Shown here: positions 3,869 to 34,856 of the stretch, piece after piece
Layout of the letters: each line of letters opens with the position of its first letter
Position numbering within the stretch: the stretch's first letter is position 1
Virus record (IMG/VR): IMGVR_UViG_3300045815_000012
Origin: an uncultured virus (IMG/VR IMGVR_UViG_3300045815_000012)
Lineage: Duplodnaviria > Heunggongvirae > Uroviricota > Caudoviricetes
Strand: one strand, 5' to 3'
DNA length: 34,856 nucleotides
Translations under genes and position numbers: made by a program
The notes under the pieces: model-generated
Told to the model about the DNA's origin: nothing
Database searches by the model: none
Seen by the model: the letters and a program-made list of their open reading frames with translations, nothing else

Positions 3869-4304
3869 GTTTACCACCTCTTTTCGGTTTTCTTCTTGTC
3901 GGACCACTGACATTGAAATAAGTTGGATTCTGCTTACCAACTGTTAATGCATCTAACAGCATATCCAACTCATAGTCTCCGGTAATACCAATCCCAACAT
4001 CATCACCAATTGATTTCACAGTGTACGAATAATCTCCGATGTTCTCGGATTTAATCCCCTCAAACCGGTTCTCCATATCCATCTCATTGTCACAGTAGTA
4101 GAGATAGTCGACTAAACGCCAAGTAATCGTTTTGAGTGATTGCATCGTGATTAGATTTTCAGTTTTTGAATAATCAAATCCCGTTCGTTGAGTCGTGTAA
4201 TTATCAGCACGATCCATCAACGAAGTAAAAGCCTCATCTTCTAGTTTGTCCAACTGATCTTTAAAGCGAGAATGAAGAAGAACTTCTTTTTTTTCAATGA
4301 ACAT
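3858..4304 (-). CDS. Head-tail adaptor/connector protein
   Basis: GIKSENIGDYSYT motif typical of adaptor proteins; follows the capsid gene. Confidence 0.75.
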   Translation of the reverse strand: MFIEKKEVLLHSRFKDQLDKLEDEAFTSLMDRADNYTTQRTGFDYSKTENLITMQSLKTITWRLVDYLYYCDNEMDMENRFEGIKSENIGDYSYTVKSIGDDVGIGITGDYELDMLLDALTVGKQNPTYFNVSGPTRRKPKRGGKRVF

Positions 4305-4556
4305 CTAGCTCACTTCCTTAATGAAACCTTCCTTGATGCGGGCTTTCAGTTCAGAAGAATACGGCTTTTCGATTGCTACATTTTCCCCGTATCTAATCAC
4401 AACACCCTTCGAAATGAACTGTTTATCTTCCACCGTGCAAGTCAATAACACTTCTTCAGAGTTCTTTTCATCCGCAACAACGTCTTCCTCTTTTGGTTCG
4501 ACTACTTTGTCTTCCAATACTTCTTCAGAATTCTTTTCATCCTTTTTCTTTGCCAT
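4305..4556 (-). CDS. Small acidic protein downstream of the capsid gene
   Basis: 83 aa, AGGAG RBS, internal DEKNSEEVL duplication. Confidence 0.65.
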   Translation of the reverse strand: MAKKKDEKNSEEVLEDKVVEPKEEDVVADEKNSEEVLLTCTVEDKQFISKGVVIRYGENVAIEKPYSSELKARIKEGFIKEVS

Positions 4557-4567
4557 AGAATTTCCTC

Positions 4568-5656
4568 CTAAAGAGACTTACTTAAATCCATGATCATACG
4601 AGCTTTAGTCTCAAACGGCACGTAATCAGAAGTCTTAGTCGTATACGATCCATCAATTTGAGTTTTCGCATTCCGTTCAGTCTCAGTGGAAAGAGCTTTG
4701 AAAACATACTCATTGATTGCAAATTTCGTATCGACAAACATAATTTGACCGTCAGGCATTTGCTTAGAAATAAACGGTTTTGAAGCTAACACATCAGGTG
4801 CAGTACCATTCAACTGATTTTGCAAGAAAATTGGCGTGCCTTGAGTAGTTTCGATTGATGTCCATTGCTTCGCTGTCTTACGGTTCATAACCGCACGATT
4901 AGGCGTGAATCCTGTTTCATCCTCCATATACGTCTGAGCGTCCCATGCATCCATGATGGTCAATTTTCCGACTGTTTCAACTCCGCGAACCTCTGGCGCG
5001 TCAGAGCCATCATCGAAGTATCCATTCATCAGTCGATCGACAACCATTCGTTCATCCGTTCGACCTAACACCAATCCTTGGCGATTGAAGAATGCAGCAA
5101 GCATATCGAATTTCATTGCTTTCGCTTCATCAGTTAATTCAATACCGCCTCCACGCTTGTATACTTGAATCATTTTCTTTTCGGCCAATTTAATGGTCAT
5201 TACCGGAATTGGTCCGCCTTGTGCTACTGTTTTGAAATCGAAGTCTTCATCATCGTATTCGTCAGCATAGTACCAAGATGTAGTCTGCTGATCGATGTTG
5301 ACGGTTCCCATTAACAATTCTGCCGCACGGCCAGTTTTTTCGAATACGCCACGTACATACGATTCTACTAACGTTTCAAATAATGGCTTTGTATTGTCGT
5401 TTGCTAGTAGTGATCCGACATTCGTACGAATCAACGAAGGATTTAACATCTTGCGGAAATCATCCATCGTCAAGTCGTTTTGATCTAAATAAGAACGCAC
5501 CATTAACGAGGTGTTCTTATTGATCAAATCTTGGCTGACACCATCTGCTTTTGCAGCTTTTCGAGCTTCTTCCCAAAATTCATGTTGCTGCGGCATTTCG
5601 ATGATTCGATTGCCGATAGCAAATTTATCTTTCTTGAATAATTTTAGTTCTGCCAT
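4568..5656 (-). CDS. Major capsid protein (HK97 fold)
   Basis: 362 aa with VAQGGPIP and YKRGGGIELTDEA motifs; position in the head module. Confidence 0.85.
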   Translation of the reverse strand: MAELKLFKKDKFAIGNRIIEMPQQHEFWEEARKAAKADGVSQDLINKNTSLMVRSYLDQNDLTMDDFRKMLNPSLIRTNVGSLLANDNTKPLFETLVESYVRGVFEKTGRAAELLMGTVNIDQQTTSWYYADEYDDEDFDFKTVAQGGPIPVMTIKLAEKKMIQVYKRGGGIELTDEAKAMKFDMLAAFFNRQGLVLGRTDERMVVDRLMNGYFDDGSDAPEVRGVETVGKLTIMDAWDAQTYMEDETGFTPNRAVMNRKTAKQWTSIETTQGTPIFLQNQLNGTAPDVLASKPFISKQMPDGQIMFVDTKFAINEYVFKALSTETERNAKTQIDGSYTTKTSDYVPFETKARMIMDLSKSL

Positions 5657-6027
5657 TAAATCAACACCTCCGCTGTTTTATCAGGATTCCCTTTCAAAAC
5701 AAGTAACCCTTTGTCATCTCCTGATTTGATGAACTTCCCGCTTGCATCAGCGATCACTCGATCACCCATCGCCACAACTGCATCAACCTCTACTTTGACA
5801 TTGCGAGACTTCCCAACTACATAAATTGAAACGGGATCACCTGCCTTGCCACCGACTTTTACAATACCATCCACTTTGTCGTCAACGGACAACGACACTC
5901 CATAGTCACCTTCCGCTGCATCGAATACCACAGGCTGACCAGAGACCACATCCGTCTTCGGATAAACTGTCAAGCTTAATCCATAATTCTCAGGGACGAT
6001 GCCCCCACGATTAAAAATTGCTCCCAT
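5656..6027 (-). CDS. Head decoration / cement protein
   Basis: 123 aa Gly/Val-rich beta protein (VAMGDRVIADASGK) directly upstream of the capsid gene. Confidence 0.65.
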   Translation of the reverse strand: MGAIFNRGGIVPENYGLSLTVYPKTDVVSGQPVVFDAAEGDYGVSLSVDDKVDGIVKVGGKAGDPVSIYVVGKSRNVKVEVDAVVAMGDRVIADASGKFIKSGDDKGLLVLKGNPDKTAEVLI

Positions 6028-6041
6028 ATTTTTCTTTCCTC

Positions 6042-7190
6042 CTATCGAAGTACCATGACTTCATCATCTTTTTCTTCTGATCCGATTTGCCGGCCACTGC
6101 TAAATTTTTTCGACTTCATTTTTTCGTAGCTTTCCCGTTCTTCTTTGATGAATTCTAAATCAGCGCGGGTCAACATAGACTTGTAACTCTCAGCATTGAA
6201 ATCTTCCCCTTGAACAGCAACACGTGCTTTAACAGCTGAATCAATCAAGTCCTCTTTGTACTTGCGGCCAGCTTCTGCCTCTTGCTTCATACGATTGATT
6301 GCTTCAACACTTGCGTTACCTTCTCCAAGAGCGTTACGGATAGCAACGTCCTCTTGAGATTCAAAACGGATTTCATGATCTTCCATAACTTTGCGGAGAT
6401 CAGTTACTGCTAATTTCCCATCAGTAATTGCACTACGAATTTCTTTAATGTCCACTTGCTTCACTCCTTTTGTTTTTTGTCTTTTTAATGCATCAAAAAA
6501 AGGCTTGTCCAACTCATCGAAACGAGTACCTAAGCCTTCCTGTAATACCGCTATTCTGTTTTCATCCATCAAACCATCATCAACCATCTGTCGTGCTTTC
6601 TGTATGTAAGCATTATGGTTTGATCCTTTGTATACCGTTGAAACTTCTCGCAGATGGGCGTTCTTAATCCAATAAAATACCTTTTGACCTTCTTCAGTCC
6701 GATCACCAGGGAAGTATGGAGACATCATCATGGATTTACCATCCACAGAACATATATAGTCTTCAATCCCGGCTGAGAACCCAACTGACAAATCTCTCGT
6801 GATCCCGCCTTCAATGTTACGAATAATATCATTCGTTGATCGTCCGTTTGAATTGCTATCTCTTAGCATGTAAAAGCTACCTGAGACCTTGGTCAGTTCA
6901 CCATCTTGGTAAATACTCGAATCAAATGAGCGAGCATAAGGCTCTCTATTCGTGTCGTGCCAGTCAATCATAGACACGCCTGACAATAAATCTGCTGCAT
7001 AATTTCTTAATGTCGTTTCAGGATCCATTCGAGTATCAAAGGTGTCTAGTGAGTCATCGCTGATCACACCTTCGAATGCAAATAACTCATTAGCATTGAA
7101 TGTCCTACGCGTGTGCTTATTGATTTTCGATAGCAGTTCATCGTCAATGTCCGTTGCATGAACTGACATTGGAAAACTGTTTTCTGTCAT
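6042..7190 (-). CDS. Prohead protease fused to a scaffold-like coiled coil
   Basis: ATG at 7190 after GGGGGTGA RBS. DWH, DLSVGF and LREVSTV protease motifs; helical charged C-terminus. Confidence 0.75.
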   Translation of the reverse strand: MTENSFPMSVHATDIDDELLSKINKHTRRTFNANELFAFEGVISDDSLDTFDTRMDPETTLRNYAADLLSGVSMIDWHDTNREPYARSFDSSIYQDGELTKVSGSFYMLRDSNSNGRSTNDIIRNIEGGITRDLSVGFSAGIEDYICSVDGKSMMMSPYFPGDRTEEGQKVFYWIKNAHLREVSTVYKGSNHNAYIQKARQMVDDGLMDENRIAVLQEGLGTRFDELDKPFFDALKRQKTKGVKQVDIKEIRSAITDGKLAVTDLRKVMEDHEIRFESQEDVAIRNALGEGNASVEAINRMKQEAEAGRKYKEDLIDSAVKARVAVQGEDFNAESYKSMLTRADLEFIKEERESYEKMKSKKFSSGRQIGSEEKDDEVMVLR

Positions 7191-23922: not shown

Positions 23923-24579
23923 ATGGACTTTGGATCTCGATTAAAAGAATTACGAGTTTCAAAAAAACTTACTCAACAACAATTAGGAGATAAGATTCAC
24001 GTTTCTAAAGTATCAATTTCTGGTTATGAACGTGGTGAACGTAGTCCTGATAGAGAAACTCTCACTTCTCTCGCAGATTTTTTTGATGTATCTACAGACT
24101 TTCTGTTAGGACGTGAACCTAAAGACATTAATAATTCTGTTGGTATCGGTGGAGTCATTCCAGAGGACTATTCAATTCCTATTTTAGGTAGGATTGCAGC
24201 TTCATCGCCAGCTGGTTTAGTAAGCGATTACGAAGGAGAAATTTTCATACAGCCCTCTACTATAAAAAAGTATGGTAGACACGATATTTTCGCTTTACGA
24301 GTTTTAGGCGATTCAATGAATCGAATCATTCCTGATGGCGCAATCGCAGTAATCAGAAAAAGTTGCGATTGGGAAGATGGAGATATCTGCGCTGTAACAA
24401 TTAATGGAGATGACGCAACTCTCAAACAAGTTCATAAAACAAACCGTGGAATTAGATTTTCACCATTAACTTACTCACGTTTCCACACACCATGGGAATA
24501 TATTAAAGATGAGGACGATGTTGACGTTATCATCCATGGAGTTTTTTTATATGGCATAATACCAACTGATAAAATGTAG
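23923..24579 (+). CDS. cI: CI repressor (XRE HTH + S24 autopeptidase)
   Basis: N-terminal HTH; IPILGRIAAS cleavage region; GDSMN catalytic Ser and TLK catalytic Lys. Confidence 0.92.
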   Translation: MDFGSRLKELRVSKKLTQQQLGDKIHVSKVSISGYERGERSPDRETLTSLADFFDVSTDFLLGREPKDINNSVGIGGVIPEDYSIPILGRIAASSPAGLVSDYEGEIFIQPSTIKKYGRHDIFALRVLGDSMNRIIPDGAIAVIRKSCDWEDGDICAVTINGDDATLKQVHKTNRGIRFSPLTYSRFHTPWEYIKDEDDVDVIIHGVFLYGIIPTDKM

Positions 24580-24594
24580 AATGGAGTGTTAAAT

Positions 24595-25665
24595 ATGGAA
24601 ATGGAAAAATTTAAAGATGATTTAAAACAATTGGGAAAGCGCGTAATAAAGCTAAAAGACAATATTGGTACGGAAGAAGCAACTAAAACTTCACTCATTA
24701 TGCCTTTTTTTGCAGCGTTGGGCTATGATCTATTCGATCCCACTGAATTTGTTCCAGAGTTCACTGCAGACGTGGGTATTAAAAAAGGTGAAAAAGTCGA
24801 TTATGCTATTGTTATCGATAGTAAGCCTACTATTCTAATTGAAGCGAAGTCAATTAATGAAAAATTAACAAAACATGATTCACAACTTTTTAGATACTTT
24901 GGGACTACAGAATCTAAATTCGGGATCTTAACGAATGGTCAAGAATACAAATTTTTTACTGATCTAGATGAACCTAATAAAATGGATTTAGCACCCTTCC
25001 TTACAATAGATATAACAAATATTAAAGACAACCAAGTTCCTGAGTTAGCTAAGTTTCATAAGGAAAATTTTGATGTTGACAAGATTACTAGTTCTGCCGC
25101 TGAGCTTAAATACTTGAGTCGTTTAAAGGATTATTTATCGTCTGAGCTTGACAATCCTAATGATGAGTTTATTAAGTTCCTTCTTGGTGAAATTTATGAT
25201 GGGATGAAAACAAAACAGATCATTGATAAATTTAAACCAATTATAAAAAAAGGACTCAATCAGTTTATCTCTGAAAAGGTAAATGATAAATTAAGCGCTG
25301 CATTAAAATCATCAGTCTCAGTAGATGAATTAGATACTAAATCAGAATCAAATACTACAGAAATTGACGAACCTGAAGTTATTACAACACCTGAAGAACT
25401 AGAGTCATATACTATTGTCAAGGTGGTTTTAAAAGATGTAATTCCTCTTGATCGTTTATTCTATCGTGATAATCGCAGTTACTTCAATATTTTATTAGAT
25501 GATAATATTCGCAAGTGGATTCTAAGAGTACGATTCAATACTAATGGTATGAAGATTGAATTAAATGATGAAAAACACTCTGTGTTTGAATTATCTCAAC
25601 CGATGGATATTAATAATTACGCCAAAGAAATAATCACAATTGTAAATAGATTTAATCAGAAGTAG
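24595..25665 (+). CDS. HsdR_N-type PD-(D/E)XK nuclease-domain protein
   Basis: TEEATK..LIMPF..LGYD, PEF, KVDYAI, IEAK, QLFRYF and ILTNG motifs; no helicase motor. ATG at 24595 after GGAG (track start 24586). Confidence 0.85.
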   Translation: MEMEKFKDDLKQLGKRVIKLKDNIGTEEATKTSLIMPFFAALGYDLFDPTEFVPEFTADVGIKKGEKVDYAIVIDSKPTILIEAKSINEKLTKHDSQLFRYFGTTESKFGILTNGQEYKFFTDLDEPNKMDLAPFLTIDITNIKDNQVPELAKFHKENFDVDKITSSAAELKYLSRLKDYLSSELDNPNDEFIKFLLGEIYDGMKTKQIIDKFKPIIKKGLNQFISEKVNDKLSAALKSSVSVDELDTKSESNTTEIDEPEVITTPEELESYTIVKVVLKDVIPLDRLFYRDNRSYFNILLDDNIRKWILRVRFNTNGMKIELNDEKHSVFELSQPMDINNYAKEIITIVNRFNQK

Positions 25666-25681: not shown

Positions 25682-26293
25682 ATGGTTGATTGGAAAGATT
25701 TAGGAAAAAGAACCTTCGATGCAACGAAAGATATCACAGAAAAGACAGTCGACTCATTTCAAGAATGGAAAGATGATCCTGAACGAATTGCTAAAGTTGA
25801 AACGAAAAAGGCTACAAAGAAAGCACAGAAAAAAATTGAGAAAGCTGAAAAAATGCAGAAAAAGGAAATCAAAAGAGTAAAAAGCGAACCGGATCATGAT
25901 TATTATTTTACTGAGAAAACATTTGAACCTTTCTCTTCTAAAGGCGTAGTTGAAGAATCGACATATAAAAAGATTAAAAGAGTAAAGCTTTCGAAAATCA
26001 CTCAAGAAGAACCTAATAGAATTTCTATAAAACAAGGTAGAAAAAAAATTGATTTTTTATTGGAAAAAATTGAATTCTCCGACAAAAAAAATTCAACTGG
26101 TGGCGCATTACTCGGTGTTGCAATTGCTGGAACTGCTGGTGCTGTTATTGGTAGCTCGATGAACTCAAGTAAAGTCTATGCAAACTTATACGTCCGTCCA
26201 TTAGATGAAAAAGGAGTGCTACATGTAATTCGTTTTTATGCTGACAATAAAGAAGCTGCTCAACTCTTAAGACTTCAGGCAACGGAGGATTAA
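25682..26293 (+). CDS. Hypothetical protein with glycine-zipper segment
   Basis: 203 aa; GGALLGVAIAGTAGAVIG. Confidence 0.75.
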   Translation: MVDWKDLGKRTFDATKDITEKTVDSFQEWKDDPERIAKVETKKATKKAQKKIEKAEKMQKKEIKRVKSEPDHDYYFTEKTFEPFSSKGVVEESTYKKIKRVKLSKITQEEPNRISIKQGRKKIDFLLEKIEFSDKKNSTGGALLGVAIAGTAGAVIGSSMNSSKVYANLYVRPLDEKGVLHVIRFYADNKEAAQLLRLQATED

Positions 26294-26294
26294 A

Positions 26295-27233
26295 ATGAAA
26301 AAACTAACGATTGTATTCTTACTCTGCTCTACCCTGCTCTTATCAGCATGTTCGGGCGATAAGAAGGCTGATACGACTGATTCGACTAGAACTAAACTTA
26401 CAACGAGTAGTTCAACTCAGAAAAAAGAAGCGATAAGTTTGGATTCTATATTGGAAAAGTTCAAGGATGATGGATTAACAGTTGATGAGGCTAAATCCAT
26501 GAACAAGGAAGATTTCGGTATGGCTCCAATGTCTGCTAAAGAAGCGAAGATTTTTGGTATTCAAAAAGATGATTCAGGCGACTACATGAATGGCAGAATT
26601 TTTCTGTTTGAAAAAGAAAAAGACCTAACTAAAACAAAAGACTATTATGATGAACTTGGTAAAGAGTCGGCAATGGCCTTCTCTTACACTGCAGCAAATG
26701 AAAAGAAATTAGTTCTAATGCAGTTCAATGGAGATTTACCTCAGGATCTAGTTCAAAAATATGCTGACTCTGCTGAACTCGAGTTTACTCATTCTAATTT
26801 CACTAGTTCACATGATTCAACAAGTAACTCTAGCAAGCAAAGCAACGGTAACTTGACTAACAATACCAATACACAATCTTCAGCGTCACAGGGCCTAGGC
26901 TATGGTGATCATAATGCGAACATTAGAGACGCAAGGTATCAAGAAGCTATTGAAAAAGGCGCTACTGAACAAGAAGCTACTGATTTTGCAAACGGAAGCG
27001 AGCCAACATACGTTCCAAAAACTCCTGAACCATCTGCGGACGCACAAGGTTCTAGCGCTCAACAAGATGCCGACACCTTATCTCTTACAGACTTTGTAAA
27101 TAAGTACGGCATGTCACCTGCAGCTTGGAAAGTGCAAAATGGAATGTCAGAGGAAGAAGCGTTAAGAAGCACCCAAAATCTTACCTCTGGTGAGATGCAA
27201 CTCGCCTTTTCGAAGTACGGAATTCAGAAGTAA
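26295..27233 (+). CDS. Lipoprotein (possible superinfection exclusion)
   Basis: Lipobox LSAC after a signal peptide; Ser/Thr-rich linkers; located in the lysogeny module. Confidence 0.8.
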   Translation: MKKLTIVFLLCSTLLLSACSGDKKADTTDSTRTKLTTSSSTQKKEAISLDSILEKFKDDGLTVDEAKSMNKEDFGMAPMSAKEAKIFGIQKDDSGDYMNGRIFLFEKEKDLTKTKDYYDELGKESAMAFSYTAANEKKLVLMQFNGDLPQDLVQKYADSAELEFTHSNFTSSHDSTSNSSKQSNGNLTNNTNTQSSASQGLGYGDHNANIRDARYQEAIEKGATEQEATDFANGSEPTYVPKTPEPSADAQGSSAQQDADTLSLTDFVNKYGMSPAAWKVQNGMSEEEALRSTQNLTSGEMQLAFSKYGIQK

Positions 27234-27321: not shown

Positions 27322-28566
27322 ATGCATATGGCAACTTTGTTAGTGTTAGTAGGATTTTTTGGATTTATTTTTGGTGTAGTAAGACTAATTAGAGCGTTTT
27401 TCAAGAAAACACCTAAGAAGCCAGAACTTTTAATTATTCTTGGTACTGTTATTGTATTTTTTGCTGGTGGAACTCTCTTAGAACCATCTGAACAAAAGTC
27501 AGCAGAAACAACCATAAGCAGCACACAGCAAAGTAAAACTGGAAACAAATCTTCATCCAGCTCTAGTGAAACAAAAAAAGAACAAGACAAATCTTCGGAT
27601 GAAAAGAATAAGCAAAAACAAGCACTTATCTCTTTTAATGATCGTGTGAAGCAAGATAATACTAATCTTGCAAATATGGAATACAATGGCACGCAAACGA
27701 TTGAAATTAATGATAATAATCCAACGTTTTCGGAAGATGATTTATCTTTGGCCAATAAAGCTTGGGAAAAATACGGGGACCTTGATCAACTAAACCGTGC
27801 TACTTCTGCCGAAGCTATGCTGAATCAATCATTGATGCCTGCAGCTAAACGTGGAGATATTTCTAATGTTAAGCCTACTGGCTGGCATAATAAGAAAATT
27901 GGTAAAGGATATCTCTATAATCGATCTCATTTGATTGGCTATACCCTTTCTGGTGAAAACGATAATTGGAAGAATCTGATCACAGGAACAGCACAGTTAA
28001 ATAATCCAGAGATGCTTCGCTATGAAATGGATATAAAATATTATCTGGAAAAAAGTAAAGATAACTATGTACGGTACTCAGTAACTCCTGTATTCCGTGG
28101 TGATGAATTACTTGCTCGCGGCGTTCATTTAATGGCTCAATCAATTAAATCTGACGACATTAAATTTAATGTTTATATCTTCAATGTACAAGATGATGTA
28201 ACTTTGAATTATTTAGATGGAACAAGCCAAACTAAAAGCGAGATTCTTGCTGCTCAACAAAAAGAAGAAGAAAGAAAAAATGCTGAAATTAAAGCTCAAC
28301 AAGCTGCTGAAGAACAACAGCGAATTGAAGCTCAAAAGCAAGCTGAGGCAGCTCAAAGCGCAGCGAATGAACAACAAGCAGCCGCTACTCAAACAAATGG
28401 TCCAGAATACGTTGATGCCAACGGGAACGGATTAATCAAAGGTTCTAACAACGGAATATATCACGTTCCAGGGAGCAGATATTATGATAAAACAACTAAT
28501 CCAGCAGCTTTGTTTAAAACAGTTGATGAAGCTGAAAGAGCCGGATATCGCGCTCCTAGAAATTAG
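27322..28566 (+). CDS. Membrane-anchored DNA/RNA non-specific endonuclease (EndA/streptodornase-like)
   Basis: Two N-terminal TMs; [25 protein letters not shown] and YSVTPVF motifs; C-terminal [19 protein letters not shown] domain. Confidence 0.88.
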
Positions 28567-28571
28567 TACTG

Positions 28572-28600
28572 CCTCCCCACCTAACTCTGCAAGTTCGATT
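28572..28600 (+). repeat. Truncated copy of the tRNA-like element
   Basis: CCTCCCCACCTAACTCTGCAAGTTCGATT aligns ungapped with 28789-28817. Confidence 0.6.
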
Positions 28601-28629
28601 AGATCCAAAAAGAAAGAAGGTGAATCGAA

Positions 28630-28782
28630 ATGTCAGATGAAGAAATTAGAAAAGCGGCTCACGATCTAGCGATCATTTATTTGGAAAAAGTGGACTTAGA
28701 TCACAAATCTGCCAAGCAAGTAGCTAACTACTACGTGCAAGCGAAAAAAGACATTGAAAAAGTTTTACGAGAAAAAGATTAG
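28630..28782 (+). CDS. Small 50-aa protein (not in ORF track)
   Basis: GAAGGTG RBS; MSDEEIRKAAHDLAIIYLEKVDLDHKSAKQVANYYVQAKKDIEKVLREKD*. Confidence 0.7.
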   Translation: MSDEEIRKAAHDLAIIYLEKVDLDHKSAKQVANYYVQAKKDIEKVLREKD

Positions 28783-28790
28783 CTCTACCC

Positions 28791-28830
28791 TCCCCGCCTG
28801 GCGCCGCCGGTTCGATTCCGGTTCGGGGAA
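28791..28830 (+). ncRNA. tRNA-like minihelix (acceptor stem + T-arm only)
   Basis: TCCCCG pairs with CGGGGA; T-arm GCCGG-TTCGATT-CCGGT; an 8-nt linker replaces the D and anticodon arms. Confidence 0.55.
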
Positions 28831-28862
28831 TAAAAAATGCAGTGAAGTGAAAGGAAATTTAT

Positions 28863-30629
28863 ATGGCTTGGAAGAATCCACAACATTATTATATTTCAAA
28901 TGCAACTTTTGAGAATTTTAGAATCATCAACAATATCAATTTTAAACCAGCGAAACATTTAAATATTTTAGCGGGAAAAAACGGGACTGCAAAATCAACG
29001 ATTCTTGGTATGATTGCACAAGGCTTCTCATTTAATCCAAAAATTATTTATGACATATCAAAAACAGAGTATGAAACTATTAATTCGAAAACAAACCCCA
29101 CCCCTGCTGAAATAGAAAAGATGCAACTATTCGAGAGTATTACTACTTATAATGAGAAAAATTTTGAATCCCGTGCAGATGAACACTTCAAGCTTTCGAC
29201 AGCAGATGTTAAAAGGAAAAGGCATGCCTCTATTACCATGAAAGCAAATCAGAACAATAAGCCAGACATCAATTACTTAATTGAAAGCAATGATTATGCT
29301 GATCGTCGAAATCCTAGATTAGTTACCAGAAGAATAAACAATATAGATGAAAGTTCTACGGATACTTCATCTTCAAATATTATATTTCCAGTGATATATC
29401 TTGGCTTAAAAAGAGTTAATCCGATTGTTCAAGAACGAGGACTAAAGGAAAAAAACTATGGATTACCTGAATCCGATATTGAAGAAATTTTTGATTTATA
29501 TCAATCAATTTTATTAAAAAAATACAATTCTAATTTTATTGGAATTAGTAATAATAACGATAAGAGGACTGCTGCCTTTATTCCTAAAGAAAGATCCATC
29601 GAAATGATTTCCTCTGGAGAGGATAACATTGGACAAATCTTACTGGCATTATATTCATTTAAAAAACTTAAAAAAAATTATGATGAATATTCTGGTGGAA
29701 TTTTGTTAATTGATGAAATTGACGTCACTTTATATCCAGCAGCACAAATAAGGTTATTAAAAATACTATATAGCAAGGCAAAAGAATTTGGTATCCAAAT
29801 TTTTTGCACTACACATTCACTTGAACTAATAGAGTACGCAATGGACTTAAAATTAAGTCCAAATAATAGAAATTTAATTGAGTTGTTTAATCTAAATATC
29901 GAACATCGTGATCTAGGCATTATGCCTATCACCAACATAAATACGATAAAAAATCAGTTTTTTGTCGCAGCCGAAAAGGAAATGAGTAGTGAAAAAATTC
30001 CTGTATACTTTGAAGATAAAGAAGCAATCTATGTTTTTAAAGGGCTAGTTACTAAGAAGAAAATTCTGTCATATTTAAATATTCAAAACAGTTTTTCTCT
30101 CGGTTGCACAGAATTATTAAAATTGCACAAATTTAAAATCCCTGAATTCAACGCTAGATCAATTGTCTGTTTGGATGGAGACAATGTCGCACCAAAAAAT
30201 ATTAAAAATTATATAAATCTACCATCTGAAAATAAATATCCTCCAGAACGATTTGTTTTTGAAATACTTGACGATAATAATTCTGAGTACTGGGATAATA
30301 CCAAAAATTATTCCCACGAAATATTTATGAATAATCCACATTACGACATTATCAAACGTATCTTGCGTGATACATACGCAAATGATGATGGCCCATATAA
30401 CATTGTCCATTCTGATTATTATAAAAAGAAACCTCGTGAAGTTTGGAAAATGTGGTTTAAACACGAACAATTAAATTGGAAAGGCCCTAACAATCCCGTT
30501 AAGTTTTGGAAAAGTAAAAACAATCTATCTCCAAGTCTCGAAAAATTCTATGAGGATTTAAAGAAATCAATCGAATATGTTGCAAATAAAAGTGGTATTG
30601 ACATTAGCGATATTGAACATCTATTGTAA
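28863..30629 (+). CDS. ABC-type ATPase fused to TOPRIM-like nuclease domain (OLD/PARIS-like)
   Basis: Walker A GKNGTAKS, signature SSGE, Walker B ILLIDEID, H-loop TTHS; C-terminal VYFEDKEA, CLDGD (DxD) and PPE. AT-rich. Confidence 0.85.
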   Translation: MAWKNPQHYYISNATFENFRIINNINFKPAKHLNILAGKNGTAKSTILGMIAQGFSFNPKIIYDISKTEYETINSKTNPTPAEIEKMQLFESITTYNEKNFESRADEHFKLSTADVKRKRHASITMKANQNNKPDINYLIESNDYADRRNPRLVTRRINNIDESSTDTSSSNIIFPVIYLGLKRVNPIVQERGLKEKNYGLPESDIEEIFDLYQSILLKKYNSNFIGISNNNDKRTAAFIPKERSIEMISSGEDNIGQILLALYSFKKLKKNYDEYSGGILLIDEIDVTLYPAAQIRLLKILYSKAKEFGIQIFCTTHSLELIEYAMDLKLSPNNRNLIELFNLNIEHRDLGIMPITNINTIKNQFFVAAEKEMSSEKIPVYFEDKEAIYVFKGLVTKKKILSYLNIQNSFSLGCTELLKLHKFKIPEFNARSIVCLDGDNVAPKNIKNYINLPSENKYPPERFVFEILDDNNSEYWDNTKNYSHEIFMNNPHYDIIKRILRDTYANDDGPYNIVHSDYYKKKPREVWKMWFKHEQLNWKGPNNPVKFWKSKNNLSPSLEKFYEDLKKSIEYVANKSGIDISDIEHLL

Positions 30630-30675
30630 TAGATTATTGGCCAAAAGACATTTAATTTGATAATATGGAATTGAG

Positions 30676-31560
30676 GTGATCATAATGCCACACACAAAAT
30701 CCCCGCTTAGGTATCCAGGTGGGAAAACTCAGTTATGGAAGTTTGTAGATTCGACAATTAAGCAGAACAATATAATCGCTCCAATCTATTGCGAGCCTTT
30801 TGCGGGTGGGGCCGGGGTGGCCATTGAATTACTTCTTATTAAAAAAGTTGAAGAAATTATCATAAATGATTTTGACCCCGCTATTTATAATTTTTGGAGA
30901 GCTATTATAAATGATACAGATAAATTTATTCAGTTAATCAATACTACTGAAATTTCTATCGAAGAATGGCATAATCAAAAAGAAATATATAGTAATTGCG
31001 GCAGAGTCATAGGCTCATTAGAAGGTGCATTTGCTACCTTCTTTCTGAATCGGACAAACGTTAGCGGTATTATTTCTGGCGGTCCCATTGGTGGACGCAA
31101 TCAAAATGGAAAATACAAAATTGACTGCCGTTTTAATAAGTTAAATCTAATAAAAAAAATCAGAAATATTGCTGAGCAAAAAGACAAAATTCATTTGTAC
31201 AATGAAGATGCTGCAAATCTTGTTGAATTACTAAAAAAAGAGTATCCAAAAGATCGTCTTTTCATTTTCTTTGATCCCCCATACTACGTTCAAGGACAAT
31301 CCTTGTATCTATCTTTTTATAAAAAATATCAACATCAACTTATTAGAGATAAAATATTAAGTATGGATGATTATTATTGGATTTTAACTTATGACAAGGC
31401 TCCACAAATTTCTGAACTCTATTCTAAAGCTGATAAAGGGTTTCAATACTCTTTAAATTATTCAGCTAATAAGAAGCGCGTGGCTAATGAATATATTTTT
31501 GCCAGTTCTGTAACACGCCTACTTTCGACTAATAAAGTTGATCTTCAACCAATTACTTAA
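30676..31560 (+). CDS. Dam-like (D12 class) DNA adenine methyltransferase
   Basis: SPLRYPGGK, EPFAGGA, IIND, FFLNR and DPPYY motifs. Start 30676 or 30685. Confidence 0.92.
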   Translation: MIIMPHTKSPLRYPGGKTQLWKFVDSTIKQNNIIAPIYCEPFAGGAGVAIELLLIKKVEEIIINDFDPAIYNFWRAIINDTDKFIQLINTTEISIEEWHNQKEIYSNCGRVIGSLEGAFATFFLNRTNVSGIISGGPIGGRNQNGKYKIDCRFNKLNLIKKIRNIAEQKDKIHLYNEDAANLVELLKKEYPKDRLFIFFDPPYYVQGQSLYLSFYKKYQHQLIRDKILSMDDYYWILTYDKAPQISELYSKADKGFQYSLNYSANKKRVANEYIFASSVTRLLSTNKVDLQPIT

Positions 31561-31565
31561 AGATT

Positions 31566-31585
31566 AGCCTTCGGGCTTTTCTTTT
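31566..31585 (+). terminator. Terminator after the methylase gene
   Basis: AGCC-TTCG-GGCT followed by TTTCTTTT. Confidence 0.55.
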
Positions 31586-31595
31586 AACATCAAAA

Positions 31596-31609
31596 AGAAC
31601 ATACGTTTG
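31596..31609 (+). promoter_or_regulatory. LexA (Cheo)-like box upstream of int
   Basis: AGAACATACGTTTG versus consensus CGAAC-N4-GTTCG. Confidence 0.45.
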
Positions 31610-31650
31610 TTTACATCAATACCAATCTGAATACAAAAGGAGCGTTTGTT

Positions 31651-32802
31651 ATGAATGGACATGTAAGAAAAATCGGCAACAAATGGCACTATACCATCGA
31701 AATGGCAAAAGTTGGCGGTAAACGTCAGCGTATACAAAAAGGTGGATGGAATACAAAAACTGAGGCACAAGAACATCTAAGAGAAGCGCTGAACGAATAT
31801 AAACGTGGCGGTAAAGTGGATTTAACGGATATTAGTGTTTCTGATTATTTTGATTACTGGTTTGAAAATTATGTTGAGAAGAAACTTAAGTATAATACGC
31901 AAAAAAACTATAAAAATGTAATTGATAAATACGTGAAGCCAGAAATTGGGAAATACCTACTTCAATCAATAGGCCCTGCGAAATTGCAGGAGCTTGTAAA
32001 TAAACTACCTGAAGGATTTAATAAACAGCTCTCAAAACATTCTGTAGAGATTATCTTCACTGTCCTAAAAGGTGCATTTCGAAGAGCAGTCTTCCCTTAT
32101 CAACTAATTAATAGCAATCCAATGGACTATGTCGAAATGCCGGCATTCCCTTCTAAACCAAAACAGTCAAGAGATGATATGAAAATTATAACAATGGATC
32201 AGTACCTTAAAATTTTAGATAACACCCCTATTTCGGATTCTTTTCACATTCCTCTTGTCATTGCTTTCCACACAGGGTTGCGTCGCGGCGAAGTTTGTGG
32301 GATGACCTGGGACAATGTGTCATTTGAAGATCAGACTTTAACTATCACTAAAATTATGTTACAAGACAAGAATGGGATACAAATAGGAACACCCAAAACG
32401 CAGGCTAGTTATCGAACCATCAGTATTGATGACATGCTGCTTGAAGAGTTAAAAAGCCATAAAAAAAGACAATTAGAAAACAGAATGAGATATGGAAAGT
32501 TTTATTATGAAAGTTCATTTGTATGTACTAAAGAAAACGGACAGCCTGTCACACCAAATTCAATAAAATGGTCAGCAAGTAAAATCAAGAAGAATTTAGG
32601 TATTAACTTTAACTTCCATTCTTTGAGACACACGCATGCAACAATGCTCTTAGAGGATGGAGTAAAACCGAAAATTGTTCAAGAAAGACTCGGCCATTCG
32701 AGGATTTCTACTACTATGGATAAATATGTACATGTTACTAAGAAAATGAGAACTGAAGCCGTTGATATTTTCGCCGAACGTCTTCGCCGTTCAATGAACT
32801 AA
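31651..32802 (+). CDS. int: Tyrosine integrase
   Basis: N-terminal arm-binding domain; TGLRRGE, PKT, HSLRHTHAT, LGHS and catalytic Y (MDKYVH). Confidence 0.97.
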   Translation: MNGHVRKIGNKWHYTIEMAKVGGKRQRIQKGGWNTKTEAQEHLREALNEYKRGGKVDLTDISVSDYFDYWFENYVEKKLKYNTQKNYKNVIDKYVKPEIGKYLLQSIGPAKLQELVNKLPEGFNKQLSKHSVEIIFTVLKGAFRRAVFPYQLINSNPMDYVEMPAFPSKPKQSRDDMKIITMDQYLKILDNTPISDSFHIPLVIAFHTGLRRGEVCGMTWDNVSFEDQTLTITKIMLQDKNGIQIGTPKTQASYRTISIDDMLLEELKSHKKRQLENRMRYGKFYYESSFVCTKENGQPVTPNSIKWSASKIKKNLGINFNFHSLRHTHATMLLEDGVKPKIVQERLGHSRISTTMDKYVHVTKKMRTEAVDIFAERLRRSMN

Positions 32803-32823
32803 ATTCGCTCTTTTTCATTAAAA

Positions 32824-33129
32824 ATGTTCGCCCAAATAAAACATCGGGCGAACATTGGGCGAATTTTTATGAAAATCACAATCATTCATAGCGGATATTT
32901 TCAAACAAACCCTTATTTCTTCTTGGGTTCATCCTCATCCATTTTCAGAACGGCCATGAATGCCTCTTATCTTATTTCCTGATTCACAAAGGTTTAAGAG
33001 TTCCTCAAGAGGTTTAATAATACCTAGACAAATATACTTCATCAGGTAACAAATATCAAATTCAAGCTCTAACGATATTGGTGATTACTCATGCAGTTTT
33101 TAGCTTTGGGCGGCGATATGACGAACAAT
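32824..33129. other. attP-type attachment site with replacement lepA 3' end
   Basis: Minus strand 32966-32913 encodes EAFMAVLKMDEDEPKKK*, like the LepA C-terminus. Arm-type GGGCGAACA repeats at 32824-32865, degenerate copies at 33107-33129. Confidence 0.8.
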
Positions 33130-33151
33130 CAAATTTAATAAATTGTTCCCC

Positions 33152-33180
33152 TTCACAACCGGAACATATGTTTGTATGAT
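33152..33180 (+). promoter_or_regulatory. Putative SOS-regulated promoter
   Basis: TTCACA-17-TATGAT with GGAACATATGTTTG (LexA-like) in the spacer. Confidence 0.6.
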
Positions 33181-33208
33181 ATAAATATCTTATTCTAGGG
33201 GTGATCGT

Positions 33209-33463
33209 ATGAAATCGTTAAATGGTATTGTAAGTAGCGTAAAAATTCTTAAGTATTCTGAACGTCCCCTCGTCTATTTTAAGCTTGATGATACTAGCTG
33301 TTTGATTGCTGGTCACTCGTTGAATTTTTTTGCAGATGTAGAGGATGGAATGCGGATCGCTGTTGCTGGCGAGTACAATAGTAGGAAACAGTTCATTGTG
33401 CGGAAATATAGTGTGATCGGAGAAACTAGAATCATGTTAGAGTTAAATCGATTGTCAGTTTAA
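33209..33463 (+). CDS. Small OB-fold-like protein, probably SOS-induced
   Basis: 84 aa beta-rich protein (GIVSSVKILK..PLVYFKL..IAVAGEYNSRKQFIV); GGGGTG RBS. Confidence 0.7.
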   Translation: MKSLNGIVSSVKILKYSERPLVYFKLDDTSCLIAGHSLNFFADVEDGMRIAVAGEYNSRKQFIVRKYSVIGETRIMLELNRLSV

Positions 33464-33517
33464 TTCTAAATTGCTATTGTTCTGATTATTTTTATAAAGT
33501 ATCATATAGAAAGAAAG

Positions 33518-34420
33518 GTGGTAAAAGTGTTGGCAAAGTACGAATTTTCTGTAAGATATGCAGGAGAAGCTTTGGTTGATGGAAGGATTCCTATCAGAGA
33601 CTTGGCTCCTTCTTTGTTAGCTCTTTCTGAAGCCTTTCAAGAAATACAACAGATCACTCATCCATATCAACAACCTGTTTCACTAGATATTAAGGCTTCT
33701 GAAAAAGGATCGTTTATTGTTGATTTAATATTAGCAAATGGAAACGATTTGTTGTCGAGTGCTATTGATTTACTAAATGGAAATGAATCAGAAGCTTTAA
33801 GAAATTTAATTGAACTGGCTACTGGTTTCACAGCAGCAGTTATTTTCATTACCAAAGTAGGTAAAAAGAAAATAAAAAGAAAAAAAGAATTGCCTGAAGG
33901 AGAAGTAAAGATTACTTTGGACGATGAAACTTCAATTACTGTTTCCAAAGATGTTTTTGAAGCATATAGAAATGTTGAATTTAGAAAAACGACTAAGGAA
34001 TTTGTTCGGCCGTTAGAATCAGAAGGTATTGAAGCAATTGAATTTTCAACTGAGAAAAATGCTTCTGTGTCAATATCTAAGCAAGATGTCTCAGCTTTTG
34101 ATGTTCCAGAGATTGAAGATAAAGAATTCCCTTCAACTGAAAGTACTGTATATTTGCAAATTATCAATATTTCATTTGCGAATGAAAAATGGAAACTGAC
34201 TGATGGTAACAAACCTTTTTGGGCAAAAATTGAAGATGAAGAATTTCTCACTTCTATTGAAAATAATCAACAACAATTCGGTGCTAGTGATGCTCTAAAA
34301 GTTATACTGGAGACACAGCAAAAGTTTACTGACAATGGTTTGAAAACGGAGTATTCTGTAAAAAAAGTAATCGAACACATTAAAGGGCCCAAACAATTAA
34401 AATTGGATTTTGAAGAATAA
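33518..34420 (+). CDS. Hypothetical acidic protein (moron-like)
   Basis: ~300 aa with YAGEAL.DG.I..RDLAPSLLAL and GSFIVDL motifs. Followed by terminator TACCTTCTCT/AGAGGAGGTA plus T-run (34435-34463). Confidence 0.8.
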   Translation: MVKVLAKYEFSVRYAGEALVDGRIPIRDLAPSLLALSEAFQEIQQITHPYQQPVSLDIKASEKGSFIVDLILANGNDLLSSAIDLLNGNESEALRNLIELATGFTAAVIFITKVGKKKIKRKKELPEGEVKITLDDETSITVSKDVFEAYRNVEFRKTTKEFVRPLESEGIEAIEFSTEKNASVSISKQDVSAFDVPEIEDKEFPSTESTVYLQIINISFANEKWKLTDGNKPFWAKIEDEEFLTSIENNQQQFGASDALKVILETQQKFTDNGLKTEYSVKKVIEHIKGPKQLKLDFEE

Positions 34421-34474
34421 TCATTCTTTTTGCGTACCTTCTCTAAAAGAGGAGGTATTTTTTATGTACCCTGT

Positions 34475-34546
34475 AGGGCCTTGTAGGACTCGAACCCGCA
34501 TCTTCCGATATGAACCGGAGTATTCTACCAATTGAACTAGGAATAC
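34475..34546 (-). pseudogene. Degenerate tRNA (CAT anticodon, Met/Ile2-like)
   Basis: D-arm TAGTTCAATTGGTAGAATA, anticodon arm TCCGG-TTCATA-TCGGA (6-nt loop), T-arm GCGGG-TTCGAGT-CCTAC. The acceptor stem does not pair. Confidence 0.7.
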
Positions 34547-34591
34547 TCTTAAATAAGGATTATTATTTTTAAAACGTGTTATAATACAGAA

Positions 34592-34656
34592 TAGAACGTC
34601 AGATCTTCCCCACAGTCCACTTCCCCAAGTAACTGTATCTGACGTTCCCTTTTTTT
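34592..34656 (+). ncRNA. Candidate small RNA with two CUUCCCCA motifs
   Basis: Extended -10 TGTTATAAT at 34577-34585; 11-bp stem GAACGTCAGAT/ATCTGACGTTC; terminal T7. Confidence 0.6.
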
Positions 34657-34744
34657 ATGGGCGAGTGACTTCCCATTAAAATTAACTTACCCATAAAACG
34701 TTTACTTTGCAAATGATACACTCATGACAAAGTGATACACTACA

Positions 34745-34835
34745 CAAAGAAACAACCAGCCCGCACACGACTGGTTGCCGATCAAGATGAAACTTAGTTA
34801 TGAAAAAGAAGTAAGTTCTGGCAAAACTTACACAT
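34745..34835 (-). ncRNA. Candidate small RNA
   Basis: Minus-strand hairpin GTAAGTT/AACTTAC, U-rich linker, terminator CAACCAG/CTGGTTG plus TTTCTTT. Confidence 0.35.
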
Positions 34836-34856
34836 TCATAATAGCTCTTTTGTTAA

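Follow-up and report, generated by a model that had tools for sequence, protein, structure and literature searches.

An OLD-like ATPase with a TOPRIM-like domain paired with a D12-class DNA methylase in the lysogeny module of a P335-like prophage

Introduction

PD-lambda-5, from a prophage of Escherichia coli ECOR7, is a validated two-gene defense of broad activity in which an effector gene is followed by a methylase gene (Vassallo et al. 2022; PMC9519451). The tables accompanying that work describe the A component as a ParB-like/HEPN protein (Tables S1 and S3) and record that its cloning required a host without mcrBC-hsd-mrr (Tables S1 and S6), from which we take the PD-lambda-5 methylase to be active in vivo. 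HEC-04, as presented in its preprint, is an ATPase–TOPRIM fusion that defends E. coli and, to do so, depends on both the Walker A lysine and the E/D/D site (Payne et al. 2024; bioRxiv 10.1101/2024.01.29.577857). Here we analyze a gene pair encoded in a 34,856-nucleotide stretch of viral DNA (IMG/VR IMGVR_UViG_3300045815_000012; hereafter the window, meaning the whole stretch at its full length), which is a temperate siphophage, a P335-like prophage, in a low-GC Firmicute, with a large terminase 80% identical to that of Lactococcus phage ul36. The pair consists of an ABC ATPase with a TOPRIM-like C-terminal domain and, downstream, a D12-class DNA methylase. Like PD-lambda-5 it is a two-gene prophage system with the effector first, and the B component, the PD-Lambda-5_B methylase, is present; unlike PD-lambda-5 it lacks the A component, in place of which stands an apparent ABC ATPase–TOPRIM fusion of the same architecture as HEC-04, the closest validated relative of the ATPase protein.

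The OLD family also has an ABC ATPase head followed by a TOPRIM, and a 2023 review, which also mentions a class 4 once, sorts classes 1 to 3 of the family by gene neighbor: none in class 1 (P2 Old), a UvrD-like helicase in class 2 (Gabija GajA), and a retron reverse transcriptase in class 3 (PMC10568477). The cassette in the window has neither a UvrD-like helicase nor a retron neighbor, and none of classes 1 to 3 as set out there has a methylase partner. PARIS (AriA/AriB), lactococcal AbiL (AbiLi/AbiLii), and Campylobacter RloAB likewise combine an ABC ATPase with TOPRIM logic, but as two split proteins and with no dedicated methylase, whereas the protein in the window is fused. PARIS is described as being triggered by Ocr (PMC12839542), RloAB as sitting within type I restriction–modification (RM) loci (PMC13064643), and P2 Old and PARIS AriB have recently been reported as tRNases. 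Methylation-based discrimination of self from non-self, together with an OLD-related ATPase–nuclease (MAD3–MAD4), is described for the MADS system (mad1-8) of Pseudomonas aeruginosa, but as an eight-gene operon with ATPase and nuclease split, whereas the cassette in the window has two genes (PMC13662399). How the nuclease of OLD-type defenses is licensed is still being worked out, and the partner gene described here suggests methylation as a concrete answer. From sequence analysis, the pair would be new as a PD-lambda-5-type module with an OLD/HEC-04-type effector or, equally, as a methylase-linked OLD-family context outside classes 1 to 3. The reading that we favor, to which we give roughly an even chance, is that it is a methylation-gated, restriction-like antiphage defense with an OLD-type effector.

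The ATPase and the Methylase Form a Conserved Unit

An earlier note, made from the letters of the sequence alone, had proposed an AT-rich two-gene unit just upstream of int as a candidate defense. Both open reading frames (ORFs) are present upstream of int at the positions that it gave, in DNA with a GC content of 0.295-0.317 over 29001-31500, as against about 0.35-0.43 elsewhere in the window. The features of the cassette are as follows.

28788..31613, plus strand: cassette of 2.8 kb comprising ATPase–TOPRIM gene, methylase gene, and terminator; homology with locus L029 begins and ends here
28863..30629, plus strand: ATPase gene, 588 aa; ABC ATPase, TOPRIM-like domain at its C terminus; candidate effector
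28863..29867, plus strand: ABC ATPase head, residues 1-335; AAA_21 matches residues 33-324
29985..30227, plus strand: TOPRIM-like core, residues 375-455; strand-E384, strand-D438xD440, and L453-P454
30228..30626, plus strand: C-terminal helical region with invariant R525 and K529
30676..31560, plus strand: methylase gene, 294 aa from GTG; D12-class (alpha) DNA methylase of the PD-Lambda-5_B family
31559..31593, plus strand: hairpin and U-tract, probable intrinsic terminator, directly inside the right border of the cassette

Gene neighborhoods were compared at 108 loci, made up of 26 contigs from a one-genome-per-species set, 80 viral contigs, and 2 annotated phages, and 105 of these encode a substantial relative of the ATPase (26-100% identity). 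A methylase relative is encoded at 93 of the 105 and lies no more than 700 bp away at 90, either downstream on the same strand (80 loci), upstream on the same strand (7), or downstream on the opposite strand in convergent orientation (3). Eight of the 12 loci without a methylase end within 119 bp of the ATPase gene, so that 93 of 97 informative loci are paired, in keeping with the two-gene unit that the earlier note had proposed. Since many of the viral loci are near-copies of one another (there are 96 distinct ATPase DNA sequences among 106 matches), the fairer figure is that of the one-genome-per-species set, where the methylase is found at 18 of 21 informative loci in at least four phyla. 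The hosts in this set are Pseudomonadota, Mycobacterium, Collinsella/Eggerthellaceae, Clostridia, Selenomonas, and Fusobacterium, and the paired loci as a whole span Pseudomonadota, Actinomycetota, Bacillota, and Fusobacteriota. Public phage records with an ATPase match carry an adjacent methylase in six of seven cases, and in Citrobacter phage phiNP the pair also abuts an integrase. These counts support the ATPase and the methylase being a real, conserved functional unit.

The linkage bears directly on a reading in which the two genes are independent morons: a stand-alone OLD/HEC-04-like defense gene, and a methylase by which the phage protects its own DNA from restriction by the host. Orphan methylases are commonly carried by phages, and at four loci with full flanks (L009, L018, L020, and L105) an ATPase relative stands without such a methylase, in L105 after a cI-like repressor. 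These four loci weigh against the reading that we favor, since they indicate that the ATPase effector can exist without a methylase partner, and both HEC-04 and class 1 OLD proteins are reported to work as single genes (bioRxiv 10.1101/2024.01.29.577857; PMC10568477). Independence does not readily explain why the pair persists across phyla at 93 of 97 informative loci, for the most part with gene order and strand unchanged and gaps of ~50-200 bp, or why the same methylase clade otherwise has PD-Lambda-5_A at the same position (see below). Chance hitch-hiking would not outlast such divergence (26-33% identity for the ATPase and 36-53% for the methylase), and we regard independent morons as very improbable.

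One of the four loci just named, L020, has a further link of the ATPase family to restriction loci: its distant ATPase relative overlaps, at 4162-6449, the end of a gene for an NgoPII-type restriction endonuclease (RE_NgoPII, 2.6e-111).

The family is widespread. Relatives of the ATPase are encoded in 161 stretches of viral contigs, and a profile of the C-terminal domain recovered 871 cluster representatives at E ≤ 1e-3, or 135 when the limit is set to E ≤ 1e-30; most of the proteins are 500-615 aa long with the domain at the C terminus. Named ATPase homologs include proteins of Streptococcus pneumoniae, Pseudomonas aeruginosa, Listeria, and Lactococcus. An enterobacterial version of the pair is found in 85 of 5426 complete E. 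coli genomes, which makes bench work on the pair easy; RefSeq labels its two genes only “AAA family ATPase” and “DNA adenine methylase,” so current defense annotation misses the pair, and NCBIfam has no specific model for it. Megablast of 28600-32900 against phage records gave no match. The cassette itself recurs without differences in contigs of 20 public runs, of which 19 are labeled ant metagenome and six are RNA libraries, and in four metatranscriptome libraries one contig spans 25545-32966 without differences; because lytic genes are represented as well and DNA may be present in libraries of this kind, these contigs do not show transcription of the cassette. For dairy- and insect-associated lactic acid bacteria, the cassette would be one more prophage-borne barrier to phages.

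The ATPase Is OLD-Like and Its C-Terminal Domain Resembles a TOPRIM

The ATPase protein matches Pfam AAA_21 (7e-12) and AAA_15 (5e-8). All core motifs of an ABC ATPase that the earlier note had read are invariant or nearly so in an alignment of 72 homologs: Walker A G38-K39-N40-(G41)-..K44-S45 (GKNGTxKS), Q53, the signature S250-G252-(E253)-D254 (SxGED), Walker B D284-E285, and H318. A beta-rich insert in the head has H108, D115, R152, R156, N172, P176, and R184 invariant in the same alignment and may play a role in sensing. The model of the full protein (pLDDT, a predicted local distance difference test score, 89.6) matched PtuA (6e-11), GajA (7e-11), and Thermus OLD (3e-9) in Foldseek, and the head resembles PtuA, GajA, Thermus OLD, AriA, and Rad50 by sequence profile as well as by fold. 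The profiles and the model thus support an OLD/PtuA/GajA-like protein with the ABC head of the OLD family, in agreement with the relation to OLD and Gabija that had been suggested earlier.

More specific assignments were not obtained. PADLOC-DB 2.0.0 gave only generic ATPase-head matches among the best 25 of 78 matched families, including AriA (6e-14) and AbiLi (3.6e-11). The hidden Markov model (HMM) for GajA covers only residues 244-319, and the cassette has no helicase gene; the fused AriAB HMM matches N-terminal stretches only, and the match to MAD3 is no more than a trace at the Walker A region (E 0.088). The whole protein matched the HEC-04 model weakly (1.1e-11, 42 bits, in two stretches), which points to a sister family of HEC-04 rather than a member of it. 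HEC-04 also differs in acting alone and, in the preprint's description, in occurring embedded in Hma systems, whereas the family in the window is obligately paired with a D12 methylase.

We consider it probable that the C-terminal domain, which the earlier note had called TOPRIM-like, is a TOPRIM. Topology and motifs fit and several weak lines of sequence and model evidence converge, although no single test was strong. The motifs are E384-D385-x-E387 (YFEDKEA) after one predicted strand and D438-x-D440 (LDGD) after another, with E384, D438, and D440 invariant in 40 relatives. In a separate model of the C-terminal domain (pLDDT 87.7), a four-stranded alpha/beta core places E384 and D438-x-D440 each at a strand end, and after the core comes a helical region with the invariant R525 and K529, which aligns with the helical part of OLD C-terminal regions within structural matches of 144-176 residues. 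All VIA-align matches over 144-176 residues were to TOPRIM nucleases: retron Eco2 (Z 5.3), Xanthomonas OLD (Z 5.3), AriB (Z 4.7-4.9 over 159-176 residues), and Burkholderia OLD (Z 4.5). In sequence, the HEC-04 HMM was matched by 18 of the 40 C-terminal domains (best E 4.9e-9) and was the only PADLOC family to recur there; the domain of the 588-aa protein itself matched HEC-04 alone among PADLOC families, at HMM positions 312-411 (E 6e-4), a region that holds the experimentally essential HEC-04 E319, D375, and D377. Features in ESM Atlas named DUF4435 (0.84) and OLD-like_TOPRIM (0.83), which, both being under the 0.9 trust level, serve as leads only.

Several results count against this assignment. 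The modest Z scores of the TOPRIM matches (4.5-5.3) are tied with those of CheY-like receivers, which align over only ~90 residues. The best Foldseek match of the C-terminal model reached only E 0.014, the top three (0.014-0.044) all being the C-terminal region of Xanthomonas OLD, with that of Burkholderia OLD also among the best matches. No Pfam family, and no OLD-like_TOPRIM in particular, was matched by any of the 40 C-terminal domains (residues 335-588). Comparison by hhalign of the C-terminal profile with a thin DUF4435 profile of four sequences from Bacillota was not significant (probability 0.1%), the strand-Glu motif alone being aligned.

The Methylase Belongs to the PD-Lambda-5_B Family and Exchanges Partners

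The methylase matches the Pfam D12 class (PF02086, 4e-21), PD-Lambda-5_B (PDLC04018, E 2e-111, with residues 4-285 aligned to positions 1-278 of the 291-position profile), and MTase_II (PDLC03358, 8e-94). Its E-P-F-A-G-G-A-G and D200-P-P-Y203 are invariant in 32 relatives, and its S-adenosylmethionine (AdoMet) and DPPY motifs are intact; both proteins of the pair have intact catalytic motifs. The true start is probably ATG 30685 rather than GTG 30676, as a GAGGTG ribosome-binding site precedes ATG 30685 and the homologs begin MPxT..PLRYPGGK. A separate methylase promoter was not evident in a promoter scan (17 sites, against 22.9 expected), and a predicted complex of ATPase and methylase scored 0.00, which is uninformative either way.

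Of the earlier description of this protein as an intact-looking, Dam-like N6-adenine methylase, the intactness holds, but Dam-like N6-adenine activity is not secure. Its score against NCBIfam Dam (TIGR00571) is 69.3 bits, under the cut-off of 114.85, and its closest solved structure is M.CbeI (PDB 7m6b; profile E 1.8e-31, single-sequence E 5e-17, ~30% identity), with M.DpnII (1.6e-12) and Dam (about 1e-4) farther away by profile. We take M.CbeI to be part of a classical type II system. The partner of the methylase in the window matches no restriction endonuclease family in Pfam, PADLOC, or NCBIfam searches, and the pair is thus not recognizable as a type II RM system. M.CbeI, from Caldicellulosiruptor bescii, is described as an alpha-class N4-cytosine methylase that also has DPPY (PMC8616854), so the assignment to N6-adenine is not settled and the modified base may be N6-methyladenine (m6A) or N4-methylcytosine (m4C). 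At ~30% identity, M.CbeI does not allow the target base or the target motif to be carried over.

A methylase-centered survey, covering the closest 80 of 542 viral loci, found an ATPase relative adjoining the methylase at 59, and three loci were cut off upstream. Scanning the neighbors at 16 others identified 13 as PD-Lambda-5_A (E 1e-75 to 1e-244), one as HerA-like, one as PDC-S22, and one as unknown; the two loci left out of the scan, L141 and L149, copy the ORF layout of L140 and L147. A quickly built maximum-likelihood tree of 132 methylase rows, which has many open forks and long branches, is used for its change count only: the labels ATPase and PD-Lambda-5_A require 8 changes or more on it, and shuffled labels gave a mean of 13.5, never fewer than 11. 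The methylase genes of L186, which has PD-Lambda-5_A, and of L146 and L166, which have the ATPase, are 87-88% identical in nucleotide sequence, and this homology sets in exactly at the start codon of the methylase. From the partner swaps on the tree and this junction we conclude that the methylase is the constant element and the effector the exchangeable one.

The two effectors are unrelated by sequence: BLASTP of the ATPase against the PD-Lambda-5_A of L140 gave E 0.19, and PD-Lambda-5_A is not among the best 25 of the 78 PADLOC families matched. Nothing was found with the PD-Lambda-5_A model in the nearest virus record, G001, a 16.5-kb fragment. The PD-lambda-5 methylase accepts an effector of an entirely different type; what these modules have in common is therefore probably the methylase itself or its mark.

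The earlier note had not recognized the pairing as a named system, and an ATPase–TOPRIM with a D12 methylase was indeed found neither in PADLOC-DB 2.0.0 nor in the available text of the literature searched, including the OLD review, the HEC preprint, a BREX survey, the MADS structure paper, and a review of lactococcal Abi systems. The novelty is nevertheless lowered, as the methylase half is PD-Lambda-5_B. An OLD gene from a Xanthomonas Tn-seq study was considered as a parallel and set aside, since that OLD gene is at a different locus from the RM system.

The Cassette Is Mobile and Its ATPase Allele Is Replaced

Comparison with L029 shows that 28788-31613 is a discrete 2.8-kb mobile unit, being 99.54% identical in nucleotide sequence over 2827 bp, while the integrase of L029 is only 23% identical. 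The right border lies just beyond the terminator that the earlier note had placed after the methylase: the hairpin at 31559-31584, with the core AGCC-UUCG-GGCU, has a folding energy of -10.6 kcal/mol (z -3.5; 2 of 200 shuffles equal it), although a simple pattern scan for terminators did not list it. A further element lies at the left border.

28778..28835, plus strand: 58-bp tRNA 3'-end-like element with T-loop GGTTCGATTCC and acceptor strand; at the cassette's left border

Neither ARAGORN nor Rfam made a call at 28778-28835. The element may once have been an att core, or may act as a recombination anchor or in regulation.

A different kind of exchange is seen at L114, where the ATPase allele alone has been replaced: the integrase is 91% identical to that of the window and the methylase 74%, the upstream non-specific nuclease gene (27322-28566) is 90% identical in DNA, and the ATPase is only 25% identical. 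The 58-bp element is 89.7% conserved upstream of this different allele. The divergent ATPase keeps the same C-terminal domain (hhalign probability 98.3%), with VYCEDE, ILDGD, and LP retained.

This fast turnover of ATPase alleles beside a conserved methylase would fit an arms race with phage triggers, as expected if the pair were a guard in the manner of PrrC or PARIS (“RM+Abi”), one of the two mechanisms that the earlier note had put forward, the other being restriction-like. The ATPase–TOPRIM would then be a latent suicide nuclease, probably a tRNase, restrained by or complexed with the methylase and fired once the methylase is bound or inhibited by an anti-restriction or DNA-mimic protein of a phage; the signal for self and non-self would not be methylation itself. 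Such a role would agree with the accounts of ABC-ATPase and TOPRIM modules as repeated backups at RM and BREX loci, for example RloAB and PARIS (PMC13064643; PMC12839542), and with the tRNA cleavage described for P2 Old and AriB. The cassette, however, contains no restriction enzyme to inhibit, an orphan type II-like methylase would be an odd and weak bait, and the strict conservation of the DPPY and AdoMet motifs argues for selection on methyl transfer itself. We think a guard unlikely, though it is the rival to which we give most weight.

Decay of the cassette points to the ATPase as the gene that is lost. In a set of 130 distinct paired loci, five have a broken ATPase frame and one a broken methylase frame, the latter being a locus at which both are broken, and L171 differs from the near-identical L174 by a 1.2-kb deletion that takes most of the ATPase gene, leaves the methylase intact, and makes a PDC-S22 gene adjacent. 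That the ATPase is the one to go where a single gene has decayed suggests a fit with methylation gating. Against this, the asymmetry (four versus zero, plus one deletion) is not significant given that the ATPase gene is twofold longer.

Loss of the ATPase frame with the methylase kept, and never the reverse, would also be expected of a selfish addiction module with the methylase as antidote and the ATPase–TOPRIM as toxin, in which post-segregational killing stabilizes the cassette or the prophage and defense is secondary. Transfer of the cassette between phages as a unit would suit such a module, as would the toxicity of HEC-04 on induction described in its preprint (bioRxiv 10.1101/2024.01.29.577857). 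Addiction is, however, fully compatible with restriction-like defense and hardly separable from it, since classical RM systems act alike, and the position of the pair among int-cI morons and its kinship to two validated defense proteins point to defense. Addiction as the primary role is in our judgment improbable, more so than a guard.

A separate observation concerns L030, a viral contig with the same phage end, 99.7% identical to 28464-34856, in which the methylase is intact and the ATPase frame is split (residues 1-222 and 228-588), either by a knock-out that arose naturally or through faulty assembly.

Proposed Mode of Action

In the methylation-gated reading that we favor, the cassette would be a moron expressed by the lysogen in which an OLD/HEC-04-like ABC-ATPase–TOPRIM replaces the ParB/HEPN effector of a PD-lambda-5-type system. 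The methylase would mark a short motif on host and prophage DNA with m6A or m4C, protecting both. The ABC head, together with its conserved beta-rich insert, would sense incoming unmarked DNA, and ATP binding or hydrolysis would license the putative two-metal TOPRIM site (E384, D438, and D440). This site would then cut nucleic acid, either the unmarked DNA, as direct restriction, or tRNA, with an abortive outcome. Because P2 Old and AriB are reported as tRNases, we hold the abortive outcome to be as likely as DNA restriction.

Methylation gating is favored because methyl transfer is under strict selection, because the PD-lambda-5 methylase appears active in vivo, and because two unrelated effectors can serve the same methylase. 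It is weakened by the modest scores behind the TOPRIM assignment; moreover, no methyl-mark reader domain was identified in the OLD-type protein, and the precedent in the family, as reported for PARIS, P2 Old, and RloAB, is for sensing phage proteins or DNA damage rather than methylation. If the reading is correct, the OLD-type effector would be the first member of the OLD family with self and non-self set by DNA methylation, and it may act, gated by methylation, as an abortive tRNase instead of cutting DNA. A broader proposal, which we hold tentatively and with somewhat less confidence than methylation gating of this pair, is that there exists a widespread, unnamed RM-like immunity in which one conserved alpha-class methylase supplies the self mark and interchangeable effectors, OLD-type or ParB/HEPN, read it.

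Surroundings of the Cassette

The window has portal, capsid, and replication genes on the minus strand and the lysogeny module on the plus strand. The contigs of four libraries all end at ~32955-32966 and then continue into one shared sequence that diverges from the window, so this position, ~160 bp past int, is probably the prophage or attachment boundary. With the end of the prophage placed there, the ATPase–methylase pair falls within the int-cI moron interval, as the earlier note had it, the cI-like repressor and int being on the same strand. The other genes of the lysogeny module are listed below; a 50-aa ORF stands between the membrane-anchored nuclease gene and the ATPase gene.

23923-24579, plus strand: cI-like repressor with HTH_3 and Peptidase_S24
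24586-25665, plus strand: 359-aa protein directly 3' of cI, with an HSDR_N / PD-(D/E)XK-like N-terminal nuclease domain (1e-15)
25682-26293, plus strand: 203-aa lysine-rich protein with a C-terminal hydrophobic stretch; no family match
26295-27233, plus strand: 312-aa protein with a lipoprotein-like leader (…LLLSAC); no family match
27322-28566, plus strand: 414-aa protein with an N-terminal membrane anchor; Endonuclea_NS_2 non-specific nuclease (6.6e-36)
31651-32802, plus strand: tyrosine integrase, Phage_integrase (5.5e-28), with SAM-like and arm-binding domains; outside the cassette

The nuclease-domain protein at 24586-25665 is another candidate defense moron in the int-cI interval, and the proteins at 25682-26293 and 26295-27233 could be morons of the superinfection-exclusion type. 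A degenerate tRNA-like sequence at 34466-34545 on the minus strand, with T-loop GGTTCGAGTCC and a possible CAT anticodon loop, is not called by ARAGORN. Beyond the prophage boundary, 33518-34420 on the plus strand encodes a 300-aa protein that matches both the PADLOC candidate PDC-S42 (4e-76) and the NCBIfam “LAPAL motif-containing putative phage structural protein” (7e-72).

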